Source: a virus (Duplodnaviria > Heunggongvirae > Uroviricota > Caudoviricetes). From it: 44,703 nucleotides of DNA. Numbering within the stretch: the first letter of the stretch is position 1; every line of letters starts with the position of its first letter. The notes under the pieces were generated by a model that did not search any database, had not been told where the DNA came from, and saw only the letters and a list, made by a program, of their open reading frames with translations. Positions 1,659 to 41,395 of the stretch are shown one piece after another. The position numbers and the translations under genes were made by a program. The stretch is taken from IMG/VR virus record IMGVR_UViG_2718218308_000001. One strand, given 5' to 3'.

Positions 1659-3113
1659 TTAAGAATCAGCCTGACTCGGGATCAGTTTTTGCCAGATAAC
1701 TGAAACGTATTTTGCCTGGTAACGGGCGTCATCAAGTGCATTATGGCGCTCACCTTCGAATGGAATAGCCGTTCTGGCATCGAAGTCTATGGCTTTCCCC
1801 AGCTCAACGATTGTGCGTACATCGCGATCGTTGTAGTAACGCCACGGGCAGGGGATCCCCTGCCGTTCGTATGAACGGCGCAAAATCGTGTTGTCGAAGT
1901 TGGCTCCATTTCCCCAAACCTGAACAAAAAATTCACCGGAGTTTTCGTCGATAAATTCCCGTAATTGTAACAGTGCATCATCTAACGGGATTTCATCGGT
2001 CATAATGGCAGATTGCGCTTCGCGTGATTGCTTAAGCCACCATTTAATGGTGTCCCGATCAATGACTCCGCCAGCAGTTTCCAGATCGATAGTCTTACTA
2101 AATTCCGGTCCCATATCTCCGGTTTGCGGATCGAAAAATATTGCACCTATTGAGATGATCGGGGCATCAGGATTTTTTCCCATGGTTTCAAGGTCGATCA
2201 TTAGATGGTCACACGTCCTGCTGGTGGATGTGATTTCGTGATGACCGTTCACCTTAATTGAGTGATCTGCCGTCTCGCCAGTTTCATTATCGCTATTGTG
2301 ATGCTGATTGCCGCCAGTGTTCTCCTTGTGTGGATGTTCAGCGCCTTCCATTTCCTCCGGATCATCTTCCTGAACTTCAACCTGATACTCTTCATCGAAT
2401 GTTTCTTGGTATGTTGCGTCGCCCATCACCGCGCCACAATCAGGGCAGTTGCCGCCGCCGGTCTGACCGCAGGCGGTGCAGACTTTTTCCACTTCCTGTT
2501 GCGCCACTGGTTCAGGCTGTTTCGTTTCTGGCTCGTTTTGTAACGCATTTGTGCTGTTTTGTTCCGCTTTTTGGTAGTTCCGTTCCGATTCATGCTGGTT
2601 CTGGTTCACAGAATCGCGGGTCTGGATCCCCTTAACCCATTTCGGATCATTCGGGTCACTAATCCCTTCAACAAATTCACCACGTGATGCAGCAAGCAAC
2701 TTATCGGCGTCAGGCTGGCTGATATTGGCTGCCTGCATAATTTTGTTTACTTCGTCAGCGGTAACTTTTATCGGCTCTGGTTGTTCTGAATCTTCAGCGG
2801 TATCTACATTTTGCGGTAAGCCCGTGTATGTGCCATTTTTTCGGGCAAAATATTCTTCTTTTGTGATTTCAGTGGCGCCAGCAGCCAGTGCCTTATCCAG
2901 ACCAGAAAGTTTGTTTGCGCGACCGTATTTTTCTCCGTCCTTATCTGCGAAGAGGAAATAGAACGGCCCCTCACGCTCTACAGATGGTTCAGCTTCCGGC
3001 GCGGTTTCATTTTTTGGGATATCAGATACCTCAGTTTCCACTGCATCAGTTTGTGTTTCTGATGACTGGAGAACATCAACAGTGCCCAGGTCTGTTTCTT
3101 CATTCTCAAACAC
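1659..3113 (-). CDS. Putative phage exonuclease with C-terminal DEDD-type 3'-5' exonuclease domain; possibly 5'-truncated
   Basis: 484-aa ORF. C-terminal half has DnaQ-like motifs (MIDLETMG ... FDxxxL ... HNALDDA); N-terminal half is acidic and low-complexity with a CxxC...CxxC cluster. The ORF start lies 60 bp from the IS3 left end. Confidence 0.55.
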
Positions 3114-3238
3114 GCCCTTTGTCGTCAGGTATTCGCAGATATATTTGTTCAGTGCTATGGGATCTTTGTGAATTGATCTTACCCAGCAATAGTGGACACG
3201 CGGCTAAGTGAGTAAACTCTCAGTCAGAGGTGACTCAC

Positions 3239-3538
3239 ATGACAAAAACAGTATCAACCAGTAAAAAACCCCGTAAACAGCATTCGCCTGAATTTCGCAG
3301 TGAAGCCCTGAAGCTTGCTGAACGCATCGGTGTTACTGCCGCAGCCCGTGAACTCAGCCTGTATGAATCACAACTCTACAACTGGCGCAGTAAACAGCAA
3401 AATCAGCAGACGTCTTCTGAACGTGAACTGGAGATGTCTACCGAGATTGCACGTCTCAAACGCCAGCTGGCAGAACGGGATGAAGAGCTGGCTATCCTCC
3501 AAAAGGCCGCGACATACTTCGCGAAGCGCCTGAAATGA
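3239..3538 (+). CDS. insE: IS3 transposase OrfA (InsE)
   Basis: 99-aa product [32 protein letters not shown]... with helix-turn-helix region; overlaps orfB as in IS3-family elements. Confidence 0.9.
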
Positions 3539-4401
3539 AGTATGTCTTTATTGAAAAACATCAGGCTGAGTTCAGCATCAAAGCAATGTGCCGCGTGCTC
3601 CGGGTGGCCCGCAGCGGCTGGTATACGTGGTGTCAGCGGCGGACAAGGATAAGCACGCGTCAGCAGTTCCGCCAACACTGCGACAGCGTTGTCCTCGCGG
3701 CTTTTACCCGGTCAAAACAGCGTTACGGTGCCCCACGCCTGACGGATGAACTGCGTGCTCAGGGTTACCCCTTTAACGTAAAAACCGTGGCGGCAAGCCT
3801 GCGCCGTCAGGGACTGAGGGCAAAGGCCTCCCGGAAGTTCAGCCCGGTCAGCTACCGCGCACACGGCCTGCCTGTGTCAGAAAATCTGTTGGAGCAGGAT
3901 TTTTACGCCAGTGGCCCGAACCAGAAGTGGGCAGGAGACATCACGTACTTACGTACAGATGAAGGCTGGCTGTATCTGGCAGTGGTCATTGACCTGTGGT
4001 CACGTGCCGTTATTGGCTGGTCAATGTCGCCACGCATGACGGCGCAACTGGCCTGCGATGCCCTGCAGATGGCGCTGTGGCGGCGTAAGAGGCCCCGGAA
4101 CGTTATCGTTCACACGGACCGTGGAGGCCAGTACTGTTCAGCAGATTATCAGGCGCAACTGAAGCGGCATAATCTGCGTGGAAGTATGAGCGCAAAAGGT
4201 TGCTGCTACGATAATGCCTGCGTGGAAAGCTTCTTTCATTCGCTGAAAGTGGAATGTATCCATGGAGAACACTTTATCAGCCGGGAAATAATGCGGGCAA
4301 CGGTGTTTAATTATATCGAATGTGATTACAATCGGTGGCGGCGGCACAGTTGGTGTGGCGGCCTCAGTCCGGAACAATTTGAAAACAAGAACCTCGCTTA
4401 G
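3535..4401 (+). CDS. insF: IS3 transposase OrfB (InsF), DDE integrase-like catalytic domain
   Basis: 288-aa ORF overlapping orfA in another frame; contains DDE-type residues (WAGDITY...HTDRGGQY...[10 protein letters not shown]). Confidence 0.9.
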
Positions 4402-4431
4402 GCCTGTGTCCATATTACGTGGGTAGGATCA

Positions 4432-4686
4432 CGTGGAAGTATGAGCGCAAAAGGTTGCTGCTACGATAATGCCTGCGTGGAAAGCTTCTTTCATTCGCTG
4501 AAAGTGGAATGTATCCATGGAGAACACTTTATCAGCCGGGAAATAATGCGGGCAACGGTGTTTAATTATATCGAATGTGATTACAATCGGTGGCGGCGGC
4601 ACAGTTGGTGTGGCGGCCTCAGTCCGGAACAATTTGAAAACAAGAACCTCGCTTAGGCCTGTGTCCATATTACGTGGGTAGGATCA
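4432..4686 (+). mobile_element. Partial IS3: tandem duplicate of the 3'-terminal 255 bp
   Basis: 4432..4686 repeats 4177..4431 (the insF 3' end plus right terminal repeat) immediately after the complete element. ORFs 4441..4656 (+) and 4429..4668 (-) are artefacts of this duplication. Confidence 0.85.
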
Positions 4687-4846
4687 CACCTCATGCCCCA
4701 GATGTTTTTTGTTTTCAGGAGAAAACTATATCGCAGAACTACGAACTAAACTTATGTCATAACTCATGCAAAAAACTCTTCGGCTAAACATTAAAAAAAT
4801 CTTATAATGCGAATCATATTTTGTTACATGTTCAGGAGCGCAAAGG

Positions 4847-5887
4847 ATGTCCCAGTACGACAAAGCCACGCAAACAGCAGGTTTAGTACGCATAACTAAT
4901 CAATTAGAGTCTATATACGGAACTTTTATTGATATGAAAGATATTAATTCCGTAGGAGAGCATAGGAAAGAAACTCTAATTACACGCTGTGTAGCTGCGC
5001 ATGCAATCAGCTTGTATGGTGATGAACCAGACCCTGAGTTAGCTGCTAATGCTGTCTGCGATGGAAAAGATGATGGCGGGATAGATGCAGTTTATGTTAA
5101 TAAAAATTCGAGAAAGATAGTAATAGTTCAGTCAAAATATATTAAAAATGGCGACGGTTCTATAACCACAAGAGAATTCGGAAGATTCAAAGACGCATGC
5201 GCAAAAGTAATAGCCAGCGACTTTACAACATTTAACGAAAGGTTTTTAAGAAACAAAGACTCCATAATTGAAGCAATCTCAGGATTTACATATAAATGTA
5301 TATGTGTATTTATATATACAGGGGTTCATGAGCCAAGCGAAGAAGTAAAATCAGACATAGAGTTTTGGGAAAAGGTTCAGAATCGGTCTCTATTATTTAA
5401 AGATATAGAGAATAGAGATGAGTATTCAGTGCTATTCGAGCCGGCAGGTATACAAGTGATAATGGATGGTCTTTCTAATGATCGATCAAAATCTATAAAT
5501 GTTAGCAATGTTCACCTTGAAAGTTATGGAGAGATAGCAGAACCTTATAAAGCAATATACGGAACAATATCCGCAAGGATCCTATACGACTGGTGGGAAA
5601 AGTACAAGTACTCTCTGTTCGAGAAAAATATAAGAAGTGTCCTCGGTAATTCATCCATAAACTCTGGGATAAAGAAAACATTAAGTGAAAAGCCGGAGAA
5701 TTTTTGGTACTATAACAATGGGATAACTGCTGTATATAGTGATGTAGAAGAAAGCATGATCAACTTAAGTACAAGCAGGAAGTACGGGCTATTTAGTTTT
5801 AAAAGTCTGAGTATAATAAATGGAGCTCAAACTGTAAGCACTATTGGTGAAGTGTTCAACTCTTTACCCGAAGAAATAAAGATCTAA
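4847..5887 (+). CDS. Candidate abortive-infection/defence protein, N-terminal part (PD-(D/E)xK nuclease-like motif; AIPR-like)
   Basis: 346-aa ORF in an AT-rich island. Motif GIDAVYVN...KIVIVQSKY fits a PD-(D/E)xK D...(E/Q)xK signature; a later NGAQT motif resembles AIPR-family Abi proteins as I recall them. Shine-Dalgarno-like AGGAG upstream. Family assignment unverified. Confidence 0.5.
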   Translation: MSQYDKATQTAGLVRITNQLESIYGTFIDMKDINSVGEHRKETLITRCVAAHAISLYGDEPDPELAANAVCDGKDDGGIDAVYVNKNSRKIVIVQSKYIKNGDGSITTREFGRFKDACAKVIASDFTTFNERFLRNKDSIIEAISGFTYKCICVFIYTGVHEPSEEVKSDIEFWEKVQNRSLLFKDIENRDEYSVLFEPAGIQVIMDGLSNDRSKSINVSNVHLESYGEIAEPYKAIYGTISARILYDWWEKYKYSLFEKNIRSVLGNSSINSGIKKTLSEKPENFWYYNNGITAVYSDVEESMINLSTSRKYGLFSFKSLSIINGAQTVSTIGEVFNSLPEEIKI

Positions 5888-5892
5888 TCAAG

Positions 5893-6621
5893 GTGAGCAT
5901 TAGATTTATCAGTGCAGCAAAAGAAGATTTTTTAACCTCTGTCACTAAATTCAACAATACACAAAACAGGGTTACTGGAAGAGATTTCTCATCACAGAGG
6001 CCCGAGCAACAAAGAATACAAAGAGAAATAAACTTTATTGGCGGATATAGCTACAAACTACTCAGGCAAGAAGACTCCAGCCAGACAGGTGGTAATACCA
6101 TTGATATTGATGATGCTTTAAACGCATTAGTGTGTGCCTCTAAAGATGAAACATTGATATCTTCCTTAAAACTAAATAGAGGACGTTTTTTTGAAAGCTG
6201 GGGAGGTCTTTATGAAAAAGTATTCCCAGCTGAAAATGGTCCTACCGGTTTAGATATAATAAATAAAGTAAATGCTTATAGATTAGCAAATGATATATTG
6301 CAAGAAAGTATAGTTAAACTACTATCAGTAGATATGGAAAATCAGAAGCAGATTCATCAAATAATGATTCATGGAAATTATGTTTTAATATCCATACTCA
6401 TGAATAAAATAGAAGTTTCCTCTGTGGAGAATCACATCTTCTCTTATAGCCGAAACGTTTCACTGGAGGAATGTATAGAGCTGGCTTCTGATACTTATAA
6501 TCACATACAGGAAGTCTTCCCCAATAGTTATATAGCAAGATTCTTCCAGAACAGAGAAAAAGTATTAAATATTATTAATCATCTACTAGGTAAAGAGCAG
6601 ATCATCGAATTGCAAGAGTAA
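5893..6621 (+). CDS. Second ORF of the candidate defence locus (C-terminal part of a frameshifted gene, or a separate partner gene)
   Basis: 242-aa ORF with GTG start 5 nt after the upstream stop, in a different frame; that frame is open from 5851, so one indel in 5851..5887 would fuse the two ORFs into about 590 aa. Followed by a strong terminator. Confidence 0.45.
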   Translation: MSIRFISAAKEDFLTSVTKFNNTQNRVTGRDFSSQRPEQQRIQREINFIGGYSYKLLRQEDSSQTGGNTIDIDDALNALVCASKDETLISSLKLNRGRFFESWGGLYEKVFPAENGPTGLDIINKVNAYRLANDILQESIVKLLSVDMENQKQIHQIMIHGNYVLISILMNKIEVSSVENHIFSYSRNVSLEECIELASDTYNHIQEVFPNSYIARFFQNREKVLNIINHLLGKEQIIELQE

Positions 6622-6623
6622 AA

Positions 6624-6657
6624 GTAAGAGCCACCTGCGGGTGGCTCTTACTTATTT
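6624..6657 (+). terminator. Rho-independent terminator after the candidate defence locus
   Basis: 12-bp perfect stem GTAAGAGCCACC / GGTGGCTCTTAC with TGCG loop, followed by TTATTT. Confidence 0.7.
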
Positions 6658-7299
6658 GACTCTACCATATGCTCGCATTTGCCATAACATATGTTGCGTA
6701 CGCTCAGAAATACGTGGAGGGCGTTTCTGGTCTAAAATCGTCAAGACACTCCATCATATATTCAGGAAATTGCTAATAATCGTGTAGGTGAATACTGCTT
6801 AAAATTCATATATATGAAATTGAACCTGTTGGCTTGCGTCGGACTTTGCGTATTAAAAGAAGTGCTGGTGGTGACTAGTGGTTGAGCTCCATTTCCACAG
6901 AAAAATCAGAGAAACCATACCCAATAGTTGTATTGAATCACGGACGAGACAGCCTCATATTTATCAGGACTGGTGTACGTCCAATACAGGAGGTTGTGGT
7001 GCTGGTTCTCAAATGTGCGCTGGCTATTACGGCTGTAATGGCGATTTATTGTCTTGCTATTGTTCTTATGGATCGCCTTTCTGACTGATTTCATATTGGC
7101 GAGGTAAAGGTAGTTAAGTAGAATGGCTGCGGGTGCTTGAGGCTATCTGCCTCGGGCATGAACACCAAAGGCAGATAGAGAAAAGCCCCAGTTAACATTA
7201 CGCGTCCTGCAAGACGCTTAACATTAATCTGAGGCCAATTTCATGCTAGACACATGTAGGTTAGCCTCTTACGTGCCGGAAGGCAAGGAGAAGCAGGCT

Positions 7300-7455
7300 A
7301 TGAAGCAGCAAAAGGCGATGTTAATCGCCCTGATCGTCATCTGTTTAACCGTCATAGTGACGGCACTGGTAACGAGGAAAGACCTCTGCGAGGTACGAAT
7401 CCGAACCGGCCAGACGGAGGTCGCTGTCTTCACAGCTTACGAACCTGAGGAGTAA
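7300..7455 (+). CDS. hokD: Hok/Gef-family membrane toxin (type I toxin)
   Basis: 51-aa product MKQQKAMLIALIVICLTVIVTALVTRKDLCEVRIRTGQTEVAVFTAYEPEE matches HokD/RelF of the K-12 Qin prophage as I recall it; AGGAGA ribosome-binding site upstream. The track ORF from 7243 is an in-frame upstream extension. Confidence 0.85.
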   Translation: MKQQKAMLIALIVICLTVIVTALVTRKDLCEVRIRTGQTEVAVFTAYEPEE

Positions 7456-9869: not shown

Positions 9870-10394
9870 TTATTGTTTAACCCATAATAGTTCATTGACA
9901 TTGAATCCCAACTTTTGAGCGGTACGCACATAGTCTGCTTTTACATTATCTGGAATAGTTTGGGTCCTTGCCAGAATCCATAGGTATTCTCTGTTCGGAC
10001 CACTGACAAGAGCATACTTATACTCATCATCCAGTTTGATTACATTATAGCCACCATAGAAGGGGCCAAAAAACGAAACTTTCAACGCTGCAGTTTTAGT
10101 ATCTCCAGTAAAGTATGCTTTACCTTCGCTCTCGCTCCATTTGTTTTTCGTTGGATCGTATCCACGGTTAAGTACGCGAATCCCTCCGTCGTTCCGTTTT
10201 TCATAAGTAGCGCTGACCTGTTCCAGACCACGTTCGAACCAGTTCTCGAGGCGAGCTATTTCATACCATTTTCCGAGGTAGCGGTTGGCGTCAAAATTTG
10301 TAATCGGCTGCACACCTTTAGGTTGTGTCGGGGCCTTACATGCTATAAGAGTGAAAGAGAGTGCAATGCCAGTCAACACAGGCCATAACTTCAT
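9870..10394 (-). CDS. Outer-membrane lipocalin, Blc-like lipoprotein (cargo gene)
   Basis: 174-aa ORF with lipoprotein signal and lipobox (LIAC); lipocalin motifs GKWYEIAR and SFFGPFYGGYNVI; strong resemblance to E. coli Blc. Opposite strand to the phage late operon. Confidence 0.85.
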   Translation of the reverse strand: MKLWPVLTGIALSFTLIACKAPTQPKGVQPITNFDANRYLGKWYEIARLENWFERGLEQVSATYEKRNDGGIRVLNRGYDPTKNKWSESEGKAYFTGDTKTAALKVSFFGPFYGGYNVIKLDDEYKYALVSGPNREYLWILARTQTIPDNVKADYVRTAQKLGFNVNELLWVKQ

Positions 10395-10586
10395 AATAAA
10401 TCCTGTACTTTTGATAGTTGAGAGTAAGTATGAAAGATAGATGAGTACGACCGATCACTTAAAGAACTTTCCTACTATATTAGGAATAGTCAATAACAGA
10501 AAAATTGTCAGTGATGAAGCCAGAAAGGCAATTTAGTCCGTGCACTACAAAGTTTATGTGTTAATGAATTAGTCAAGGGGGAGGAA

Positions 10587-11546
10587 ATGATAAAAAAACC
10601 TGTGATTGGGATCAGCGGTTGTTTGGGCGGTTCTGCTGTTCGTTTTGATGGTGGTCACAAAAGAGATGACTTTTTAATGGACAAATTAGTGGAATGGGTA
10701 ACATTCAGACCAGTATGTCCGGAAATGGCTATAGGGCTGCCAGTTCCGCGTCCTGCTCTACGACTTGTGCGCTCGAAGCAAGGAAATATACGGATGTGTT
10801 TCAGCCACGACCAGAATGAGGATGTGACAGAGAGAATGACAGAGTTTAGTCGTTCTTATATGGACAAATTAAAGGATGTATCGGGGTTTGTGGTTTGTGC
10901 TAAATCTCCCAGCTGTGGCATGGAGCGCGTGCGTGTCTATGATGAAAATGGTAATCGAGGTCGTAAAGATGGAGTGGGACTATTTACGAGCACTTTGATG
11001 GAAAAGTTTTCCTGGCTACCGGTTGAAGAGGATGGGCGATTACATGATCCAGTGCTTCGTGAGAATTTTATTGAAAGAGTTTTTGCTTTGCATGAGCTCA
11101 ATCACCTTTACAAGGAGAAATTATCAAGAAGAGAGTTATTAGCTTTTCATAGTCGTTATAAGCTTCAGTTGTTGGCGCATAGCCAGGCAGGCTATAAAGA
11201 TATGGGACCATTTGTGGCTGCAATACACGAGTGGGCGGACCTTGAATCATACTTTGAGGTGTATCGTGATAATCTGATGGCGATTCTCAGAAAACCAGCA
11301 TCACGTAAAAATCACACGAATGTGCTGATGCATATACAGGGGTATTTTAGTAATTACTTAAGTACACGCCAGCGTAAAGAGTTGAGCGAGGTTATACTTA
11401 ACTATCGCTTTGGCACATTGCCTCTTCTTGCGCCGTTGACTCTGCTGAAGCATTATCTGGGTGAGTATCCTAATGATTACTTGCTTACACAGAATTACTT
11501 CGATCCCTATCCGGAAGAACTGGCTCTAAGACTGATGGTGAATTAA
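10587..11546 (+). CDS. YbgA-like protein (DUF523 Cys-rich domain plus DUF1722 domain) (cargo gene)
   Basis: 319-aa ORF; N-terminal conserved cysteines (GISGCLGG, CPEM, SPSCG) typical of DUF523/TudS-like Fe-S proteins; GGAGG ribosome-binding site. Domain assignment from memory. Confidence 0.6.
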   Translation: MIKKPVIGISGCLGGSAVRFDGGHKRDDFLMDKLVEWVTFRPVCPEMAIGLPVPRPALRLVRSKQGNIRMCFSHDQNEDVTERMTEFSRSYMDKLKDVSGFVVCAKSPSCGMERVRVYDENGNRGRKDGVGLFTSTLMEKFSWLPVEEDGRLHDPVLRENFIERVFALHELNHLYKEKLSRRELLAFHSRYKLQLLAHSQAGYKDMGPFVAAIHEWADLESYFEVYRDNLMAILRKPASRKNHTNVLMHIQGYFSNYLSTRQRKELSEVILNYRFGTLPLLAPLTLLKHYLGEYPNDYLLTQNYFDPYPEELALRLMVN

Positions 11547-11943
11547 CTGTATGCGATATCATCTGAAAGTGATGAGTTCCTGTATGCAGGATATTTACAA
11601 TCGTAAAAACTACGCTATGATGCTCATAGTGTCAGTTTTTATAAAAATCCTGTTCACGCTAAAGAAAACATTGAGATGCAATTTAATGTTGGTAAACATA
11701 CCAGCCCCAAAAGATTTTATTCAATCTGTTTTTATATGAAGATATTTCAAGTGAATATAAAGAGCATATAATATTATTATTGCACGCAGCTATTATAATA
11801 TAACAGATTAGTTTAATGATTTGTTTTTTGTGAGTTAAACACATGGTTTTATAGTTGTGATGCAATGAGATTTTCCTTATTGTTGAACTGGCGAATATTG
11901 ATTTTCCACCTATACTTACCTAGTGTAACCCCAATGATATCAG

Positions 11944-12666
11944 GTGGATAATATGTCATACATATGTTCTATCATTTTGGTGTTGAACTCGTTTGGTGTC
12001 CGAATTGGTAAAGAAGATATTTTGTTTAAAAAAGGAAATGCTGTCCTCATTGAATACAATTTAAAAGATCTTTTTTCGTCAAATACAGATCATCTAATGA
12101 TCGTAGATGTTGAGGAGAAAACAGTTAATGATTTCTTTAAAAACTACACACTCTCACCTTTTTCTGTAAGAAGGTTTTATCCGTCATACTTGATAGTAGA
12201 ATGTGAAGATTTTTCATTGTTAAAGAACTTGGTTGCATGCTTGAATTGTGATAGCAAAACCGTGGATGTAGTTAGAAATCAAATATCACTTGCATGTCTT
12301 GCTGTCTTATCTTCAGAGAAAATAGTGCAAAGTTTTTTGTTCGGAAGTCTTAATAGCTTAGGTTGTAAAGTTAAGGCTATTATTCACTCGGATATCTCAG
12401 CGTCATGGAGACTTTGTGATATATCTTCAAGATTATATATGAGCGAGAGTTTGTTAAAAAGAAAATTAAAAGACGAAGGATTATCGTTTAGTAAATTAAT
12501 TCTTGAAGAACGAATGATGATGGCGCAAAGATTATTGATCTACAGTAACCATACTGTCGGCAAGGTGGCGGGAATATGCGGGTATGACAATGCATCATAT
12601 TTTGTAAGTGTTTTTAGAAGATATTTTGGTGTGCCTCCGCACCAATATTTATCAAGATTTTCTTAG
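11944..12666 (+). CDS. AraC-family transcriptional regulator, AppY/EnvY-like (cargo gene)
   Basis: 240-aa ORF in very AT-rich DNA; C-terminal AraC-type helix-turn-helix (GYDNASYFVSVFRRYFGVPPHQY) resembling the prophage-borne regulator AppY. Confidence 0.75.
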   Translation: MDNMSYICSIILVLNSFGVRIGKEDILFKKGNAVLIEYNLKDLFSSNTDHLMIVDVEEKTVNDFFKNYTLSPFSVRRFYPSYLIVECEDFSLLKNLVACLNCDSKTVDVVRNQISLACLAVLSSEKIVQSFLFGSLNSLGCKVKAIIHSDISASWRLCDISSRLYMSESLLKRKLKDEGLSFSKLILEERMMMAQRLLIYSNHTVGKVAGICGYDNASYFVSVFRRYFGVPPHQYLSRFS

Positions 12667-15673: not shown

Positions 15674-16036
15674 GGTAATATTAAATCGGAACATTTACAT
15701 CGCGGAATGTAAAATTTAAATAAAAAGGACTCTTCCATGAGCCAAAATTCCTGAAATCTTAAGGGTAAGATAAAAGGTCTTAATCAGAATGACACGTTAT
15801 TATTAATAAATAAAGCTATTCTTTCATTGCTGTGTTTTTCTTTACAAAAGTAATCCTTGCTATGGGTGGTTAATCATGCGTTAATGGTGTTCTGGTTTGT
15901 TACAAATTTATCTGAAGCAGTCATTGTTATAATTTTATTATTTGTACCTCTTGAGATTTCCTTGTTGGTTTTTCTCTCTGATATTTTTTTTCGGACCATT
16001 CTGCCCAAGGGCTAATTTCTTCAAAAGGTAATAATT

Positions 16037-16249
16037 ATGTCTAACAAAATGACTGGTTTAGTGAAATGGTTTAACCCTGAAAAAGGTTTTGGTTTCATCA
16101 CGCCGAAAGATGGCAGCAAAGATGTGTTTGTCCATTTCTCAGCAATTCAGAGCAACGATTTCAAAACATTAACTGAGAATCAGGAAGTTGAATTTGGTAT
16201 TGAGAACGGACCTAAAGGTCCTGCCGCTGTTCATGTAGTGGCGCTTTGA
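16037..16249 (+). CDS. cspI: Cold-shock protein, CspA family
   Basis: 70-aa product with RNA-binding motifs [12 protein letters not shown] and VFVHFSAI; preceded by a long AT-rich leader typical of csp genes. Confidence 0.9.
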
Positions 16250-16456
16250 GGTAGACAATATTACAAACCATATTCACTTTAGATGCCCGTGTTGTCATGG
16301 TTCCCAGTATAGAACATCATCTTTTGATGTTTCTGACATGAATCCTTTCGGGGCAAAATGTATCTTTTGTAAATCAATGATGATTACATTTGATAATATT
16401 TCACAATACTTAAATGCCAGCCGTCTGTCGTTGGATTTAAAAAAGTGAAAATGAAG

Positions 16457-40820: not shown

Positions 40821-41395
40821 TGGCATTCAGAATGAGTGAACAACCACGGACCATAAAAATTTATAATCTGCTGGCCGGAACTAATGAATTTATTGGTGAA
40901 GGTGACGCATATATTCCGCCTCATACAGGTCTGCCAGCAAACAGTATCGATATTGCACCGCCAGATATTCCGGCAGGCTTCGTGGCTGTTTTCAACAGTG
41001 ATGAGGCATCGTGGCATCTCGTTGAAGATCATCGGGGTAAAACGGTTTATGACGTGGCTTCCGGCGACGCGTTATTTATTTCTGAACTCGGTCCGTTACC
41101 GGAAAATGTTACCTGGTTATCGCCGGGAGGGGAATATCAGAAGTGGAACGGCACAGCCTGGGTGAAGGATACGGAAGCAGAAAAACTGTTCCGGATCCGG
41201 GAGGCGGAAGAAACAAAAAACAGCCTGATGCAGGTAGCCAGTGAGCATATTGCGCCGCTTCAGGATGCTGCAGATCTGGAAATTGCAACGGAGGAAGAAA
41301 TCTCGTTGCTGGAAGCATGGAAAAAGTATCGGGTATTGCTGAACCGTGTTGATACGTCAACTGAACAGGATATTGAATGGCCAGCACTGCCGTAG
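40820..41395 (+). CDS. tfa: Tail fibre assembly protein Tfa
   Basis: 191-aa ORF immediately after stf with overlapping stop/start. Confidence 0.85.

Follow-up and report, generated by a model that had tools for sequence, protein, structure and literature searches.

A described counterpart of the gene analyzed here is AbiU1 of Lactococcus lactis, which is said to be the AbiUi of Dai et al. 2001. Our gene lies in an Escherichia coli prophage sequence of 44,703 nucleotides, the caudoviricete record IMGVR_UViG_2718218308_000001 (hereafter the window, with positions counted from its first letter). AbiU-1 is listed as a single-gene PD-(D/E)XK defense system (PMC13099982; bioRxiv 10.1101/2024.10.26.620412), and lactococcal AbiU1 alone confers modest resistance, with 10- to 100-fold lower plaquing and delayed phage transcription; its AlphaFold model is FokI-like (PMC13064643). 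AbiU1, AIPR and COG1479 have been placed in the ParB superfamily (PMC3632139), and AbiU called by PADLOC is present on Salmonella prophages (PMC9958689). The window locus is very probably a stand-alone AIPR/AbiU1 “moron” of a Qin-like lambdoid prophage, split at a run of eight adenines (A8), whose intact protein would exclude phages as a nuclease-based single polypeptide.

AbiU1 and the E. coli protein are both single polypeptides of ~590 amino acids (aa), the hidden Markov model match extends over residues 66-393, which hold the nuclease block and the AIPR core, and the predicted N-terminal nuclease is FokI-like in both proteins. However, the C-terminal part is unaligned, and the E. coli gene is found in a different phylum, is prophage-borne and has no AbiU2 neighbor; delayed transcription and lower plaquing belong to the lactococcal protein only. 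The cleavage domains of MspJI/AspBHI/FokI type (Mrr-like) have the D...QxK pattern in common with the E. coli protein, which is 10-16% identical to them, lacks a recognizable DNA-recognition domain and carries an AIPR fusion instead. Similarly, MzaE of the MZA system (MzaABCDE) has the AIPR core in common, but the match covers ~150 residues, stays below equivalog level, and no mzaABCD genes lie nearby, the neighbors being prophage genes. As for the DUF262/GmrSD-type proteins (BrxU, SspE) and DndB, the NGAQT motif of our protein may occupy the place of their DGQ(Q/H)R motif, but the arginine of that motif is a threonine in the E. coli protein, and Pfam ParBc or DUF262 matches are absent.

Sequence comparison identifies the two open reading frames (ORFs) of the locus as halves of one AIPR/AbiU-family prophage gene, not an operon. 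An earlier note, made from the letters of the window, had offered two alternatives, namely a single indel that split a gene of ~590 aa or a tight toxin/partner pair, and had proposed a profile search of the fused product. This search returned the Pfam AIPR family (PF10592) at 115.7 bits, against a gathering cut-off of 25. Taken separately, the two ORFs match consecutive parts of the profile, with the C-terminus of ORF1 covering positions 1-75 (79.7 bits) and the N-terminus of ORF2 positions 94-159 (26.4 bits). Because several homologues match the profile up to position 305 of 308, near their C-terminus, ORF2 corresponds to the remainder of the AIPR domain. All of the 120 best among 1136 homologues carry PF10592, and nearly all of them are single proteins of ~560-630 aa; their sources are Enterobacterales, Pseudomonas, Shewanella, Aeromonas and cyanobacteria.

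We found the locus in 39 of 5426 complete E. coli genomes. It is full length in 38, of which ~31 hold one intact gene, as judged by length and annotation (9 loci were inspected directly), and 7 are broken, in various ways. Most E. coli copies are one base longer than the window and have a single gene of 1776 nt. For example, WP_000084874.1 in STLEFF_47 (591 aa) and WP_000084873.1 in E24377A, named “AIPR family protein” in RefSeq, represent the same gene in the same prophage slot, at 99.7-99.9% DNA identity, whereas the window allele is frameshifted (346 + 242 aa) and its prophage has lost the immunity/replication region to IS3. The A8 run sits in codons 343-344 of the intact gene. Intact alleles read GAAG-AAAAAAAA-GATC there, the window reads GAAG-AAATAAA-GATC, and the intact protein continues across the junction as ...SLPEEKKDLIKVSIRF...; owing to the -1 frameshift, the window contains no uninterrupted frame of ~590 codons. 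Across the 1776 nt, the window and STLEFF_47 show two differences only, the lost base and an adjacent A>T substitution, both in the A-run, and the inactivation is therefore recent. On these alignments, the window copy is a recent pseudogene of the AIPR family and not a working member, contrary to the earlier suggestion of a defense candidate in either case, and the two coding sequences annotated in strain C9, as in a few other genomes, are an artefact of the pseudogene.

At the protein level, an AlphaFold model built from a 63-sequence alignment had a mean predicted local distance difference test (pLDDT) of 84.9, with ~90 in the N-terminal nuclease region. A nuclease fold appeared in the N-terminal third of the model, as had been guessed for ORF1 from a PD-(D/E)xK-like signature. 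The fold matches and the model have a restriction-endonuclease-like alpha-beta-beta-beta-alpha-beta core. These matches vanished when the N-terminal 243 residues were removed and the last 344 residues were modeled separately (pLDDT 80.3), which assigns the nuclease fold to the first ~240 residues. In the model, D80 immediately precedes one strand, and Q95 and K97 belong to the next (strands E77-81 and E86-93, P0001 numbering), so that D80...Q95-S-K97 are arranged as in the canonical PD-(D/E)xK core. Fold and conserved residues support a predicted N-terminal Mrr/MspJI-like PD-(D/E)xK nuclease domain with the putative active site D80...Q95-x-K97. A glutamine in place of D/E before the lysine is the pattern of the MspJI family. 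Compared with PDB by Foldseek, the full model had no significant match (best E = 0.16), probably due to the presence of several domains and the low predicted template modeling score (0.47), and no relative of solved structure emerged from a profile search of PDB sequences.

The family alignment of 63 sequences (A2) agreed with this picture. Its invariant residues, in true numbering, are D72, D76, D80, Q95 and K97, those of NNG-T, NGAQT and T-NN-QN-R-DF in the AIPR part, and a histidine near the C-terminus. The AIPR motifs NNGIT, INGAQT and NNxQNRVxxRDF fall in largely invariant columns and are all present in the window, which bears out the association of NGAQT with AIPR-type abortive-infection proteins. 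The assertion that the gene could not be placed confidently in a characterized family did not survive. Beyond its RefSeq AIPR name, the protein matches phrog_1841 (“Abi alpha-like abortive infection mechanism”) over residues 15-578 (6.9e-103) and the PADLOC AbiU profile (PDLC02357) over residues 66-393 (E = 6.9e-24, profile positions 44-366 of 537). The PADLOC MzaE match was weaker (7.4e-15), and NCBIfam MzaE NF041935 reached 57.6 bits over ~150 residues, far under its equivalog cut-off of 1050. The AIPR/AbiU family and the protein are already known, and the locus is no new system: the protein is in RefSeq, has a PHROG family, and would probably be flagged by PADLOC as AbiU-like. A permissive Pfam scan of the 63 members returned no ParB, DUF262 or HEPN matches. 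Mrr_cat_2 matches, below threshold, were seen in 7 of the 63, and a follow-up on 10 members did not yield their coordinates. EF-hand and kiwellin profile matches were discarded as noise.

The intact 591-aa protein would combine the N-terminal PD-(D/E)xK nuclease with an AIPR domain of ~340 aa. By analogy with lactococcal AbiU1, the AIPR part would restrain the nuclease and sense infection; once released, the nuclease would cut nucleic acid, block phage gene expression and exclude superinfecting phages. The stand-alone context of the gene is consistent with single-gene resistance, and fold and conservation together support an Mrr/MspJI-like D...QxK nuclease as the effector of this enterobacterial AIPR clade. 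The split allele of the window has most probably lost this predicted function, because the break interrupts the folded AIPR domain, no Shine-Dalgarno sequence stands at a proper distance from GTG 5893, and the T in the run leaves no slippery site. Several points weigh against this interpretation. ORF1 keeps the complete nuclease domain, and reinitiation at ORF2, 5 nt past the stop, could give residual activity. The glutamine that replaces D/E before the lysine could also mean a non-catalytic domain, and the PADLOC AbiU match spans ~60% of the profile. No phage-resistance phenotype has been published for this enterobacterial clade in the literature searched, which likewise yielded no report of a phage assay on an E. 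coli AIPR protein, and the nuclease activity, substrate and trigger of the intact protein are ones that we infer.

The two ORFs could instead form a true operon of separate working proteins, either a toxin with its partner or a nuclease with a regulatory subunit. The 5 nt between the ORF1 stop and the ORF2 start are compatible with translational coupling, RefSeq annotates two coding sequences in strain C9, and the exact ORF2 protein is found on 18 contigs. However, the break splits a single Pfam domain, in a part of the model that is folded with confidence, the homologues (best 120 of 1136) are almost all single proteins of ~590 aa, the window differs from an intact allele only at the A-run, and GTG 5893 lacks a suitably placed Shine-Dalgarno sequence. 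Splitting is confined to a few near-identical E. coli alleles, in which distinct mutations at or beside the run (A7, delG) caused it; these are independent breaks and not a conserved design. An operon is very improbable. It is also very unlikely that the frameshift is a sequencing or assembly error in a gene that is intact in the organism. Runs such as A8 are notorious for indel errors in long-read assemblies, and the several breaks of ecoli019 resemble assembly errors. Yet the window allele also has the A>T substitution, which is atypical of homopolymer errors, and a Logan contig from a different read set, run SRR29504238, is identical at every base to window 4658-7184; it includes AAATAAA and starts inside the IS3 duplicate. 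Records of the exact 346-aa ORF1 product exist for C9 and for Logan assemblies made from other read sets. An assembly error is unlikely given the identical SRR29504238 contig and the extra substitution, and the AAATAAA allele is probably real by these matches.

Recurrent breakage at the A-run, along with the dnaX-like heptamer of the A7 allele, is the sole mildly unusual point of the locus. The run might be a site of phase variation or recoding, at which slippage of a DNA or RNA polymerase or of the ribosome toggles a costly Abi gene, with the window in the “off” state. Of the four point-mutation knock-outs, three map to the run or directly beside it (C9, VTB96935v with A7, and 488 with delG). 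Moreover, the A7 allele (L003:4161 region) reads GAA GAA AAA AAG ATC TAA, with an in-frame A-AAA-AAG, at which a -1 shift would restore the wild-type protein; A-AAA-AAG is a -1 slippery heptamer of the dnaX type. Nevertheless, eight adenines make a short tract for phase variation in E. coli, the frame is kept in 31 of the 38 loci, further knock-outs arose by nonsense mutation and insertion of insertion sequence (IS) elements, consistent with plain decay, and the T that interrupts the run in the window leaves neither a homopolymer nor a slippery heptamer, so that reversion would not be easy. We consider such a switch quite improbable. A related scenario, distinctly unlikely as well, holds that A8 is a selected weak point for switching off a costly nuclease, that A7 leaks full-length protein via -1 frameshifting or transcriptional slippage, and that AAATAAA is a second-step lock; if true, it would be a natural example of recoding-based dosage control of a prophage defense gene. 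A different effector, an N-terminal HEPN ribonuclease in place of the PD-(D/E)xK domain, has been stated for AIPR proteins (Makarova et al. 2012, PMC3506569), and R47-x4-H52 of the E. coli protein fits the Rx4-6H motif. This assignment is extremely unlikely for our protein: the histidine is not conserved, being F in homologues of 36% identity, the model has no HEPN fold matches, and the same group later portrayed the family as one in which a ParB-superfamily domain is joined to other nuclease domains (PMC3632139).

The coordinates of the locus and of the damaged alleles in other strains are collected in the table below. The two ORFs were present as the earlier note described them, in AT-rich DNA between IS3 and hok (GC 0.32-0.39 over 4800-6600, compared with 0.45-0.59 in both flanks), and the second frame is indeed open from 5851. 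ORF1 contains the entire N-terminal nuclease-fold domain and the first ~75 AIPR positions, with GIDAVYVN...IVIVQSKY and NGAQT both on invariant columns of the family alignment; ORF2 contains the remaining AIPR domain, including NNTQNRVTGRDF, and a helical C-terminal part. On the opposite strand of the locus, no ORF exceeds 59 aa. The ribosome-binding site attributed to ORF1 is there, as a Shine-Dalgarno AGGAG at 4834-4838, 8 nt ahead of the ATG. A sigma-70 scan called no promoter upstream of the AIPR gene; a putative promoter has a perfect TATAAT (4803-4808) and a poor -35. The terminator proposed with a 12-bp stem proved to be a hairpin with a longer stem (folding free energy -31 kcal/mol, z = -6.8 versus shuffles) and a weak U-tract on the + strand (UAUUUG). 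It is likely a transcription terminator or mRNA end.

Table. Features of the AIPR locus in the window, and damaged alleles of the gene in other E. coli strains.
Feature	Sequence	Position	Strand	Remarks
Complete IS3	Window	3174-4431	+	From sequence comparison
Exact tandem duplicate of IS3 right end (4176-4431)	Window	4432-4687	+	256 bp; RefSeq: partial transposase
Native upstream intergenic DNA left 3' of IS3 junction	Window	4688..4846	+	Homology to intact prophages resumes at ~4681-4688
AIPR gene 5' fragment, ORF1	Window	4847..5887	+	346 aa, ATG start; premature TAA at 5885-5887
Putative nuclease active-site block in ORF1	Window	5060..5137	+	D72, D76, D80 ... Q95-S-K97 (CDGKDDGGIDAVYVN...IVIVQSKY)
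NGAQT motif of AIPR domain	Window	5819..5833	+	Sequence read and family alignment
Lesion, AAATAAA versus AAAAAAAA of intact alleles	Window	5874..5880	+	One base lost and one A>T; frame -1
AIPR gene 3' fragment, ORF2 frame	Window	5881..6621	+	Annotated start GTG 5893, 242 aa
Hairpin	Window	6622..6653	none	Perfect 14-bp stem, 4-nt loop; begins right 3' of stop codon
sok	Window	7131-7305		Rfam RF01794, full-length match, 117 bits
hokD	Window	7300-7455		C9 annotation
A7 in place of A8	VTB96935v			
Loss of G directly 3' of A-run (delG)	Strain 488			
Nonsense mutation	Strain 492	nt 637		
IS3-family element in gene 5' end	SW070912	L007 1851-3079		
IS2 at gene 3' end	PK8566	L009 4988-6216		
Several breaks	ecoli019			Possibly sequencing errors
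Gene remnant	LR536431			262 bp of gene remaining

In E24377A, an IS3 lies in the neighboring DUF977 gene (L004 1327-2585), and the AT-rich gene or its side has repeatedly been a landing site of IS elements. Directly 3' of the broken Abi gene, the window carries the type I toxin-antitoxin module sok/hokD.

A 1961-bp query from the window was 100% identical to E. coli strain C9 (NZ_CP010129.1). The C9 prophage is integrated beside rspB, and its genes run in the order integrase, excisionase, a truncated exonuclease gene, IS3, a partial IS3, two “AIPR family protein” coding sequences, hokD, rem, ydfU and Q. In intact relatives, the AIPR gene follows the repressor, cro, ydaT, a replication gene and DUF977, and precedes hokD-rem-ydfU. 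The window lacks ~5.6 kb of this arrangement and has IS3 instead (window 2808-4688 versus L002 14-5982, with L002 380-5981 lost). The lost stretch comprised part of the exonuclease gene, ydfD, dicB, ydfA/B, the repressor, cro, ydaT, the replication gene and DUF977, and ~160 bp of native DNA are kept upstream of the AIPR gene. The decaying window prophage can no longer be an inducible phage. The position of the locus had been taken for that of the phage immunity region; since intact relatives place the gene downstream of repressor and cro, it was never in that region, which was deleted beside it.

Elsewhere, the corresponding slots hold other cargo or a lone AIPR gene. In the Qin prophage of K-12 (L010), the slot before hokD holds flxA, ydfV and relBE. 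A Cronobacter homologue of 38% identity (L011 6001-7767, P0024) occupies, without a partner, the matching slot of another lambdoid prophage, where cI/cro/ydaT/replication precede it and ninB/rusA/Q follow, and a Cronobacter copy of 85% identity, also alone, adjoins an integrase. No conserved partner gene was present in the three contexts checked, two of which are lambdoid prophages. The slot upstream of hokD in Qin-like prophages, with its equivalent before ninB in Cronobacter, looks like a hotspot for the exchange of defense and toxin cargo. The INPHARED phage collection held no near-identical DNA.

Further along the window, genes for Blc (an outer-membrane lipoprotein) and a YbgA family protein lie just 3' of the Q gene (~9870-11550; L001 11171-12847). 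GC drops to ~0.30 near 11600-12000, and the region past Q may be further non-phage cargo. A cspA-type thermoregulator 5' untranslated region at 15891-16276 (Rfam, 112.8 bits) is as expected beside the csp genes of Qin-like prophages; at 41163-41361, Rfam also identified an IS009 RNA (221 bits).

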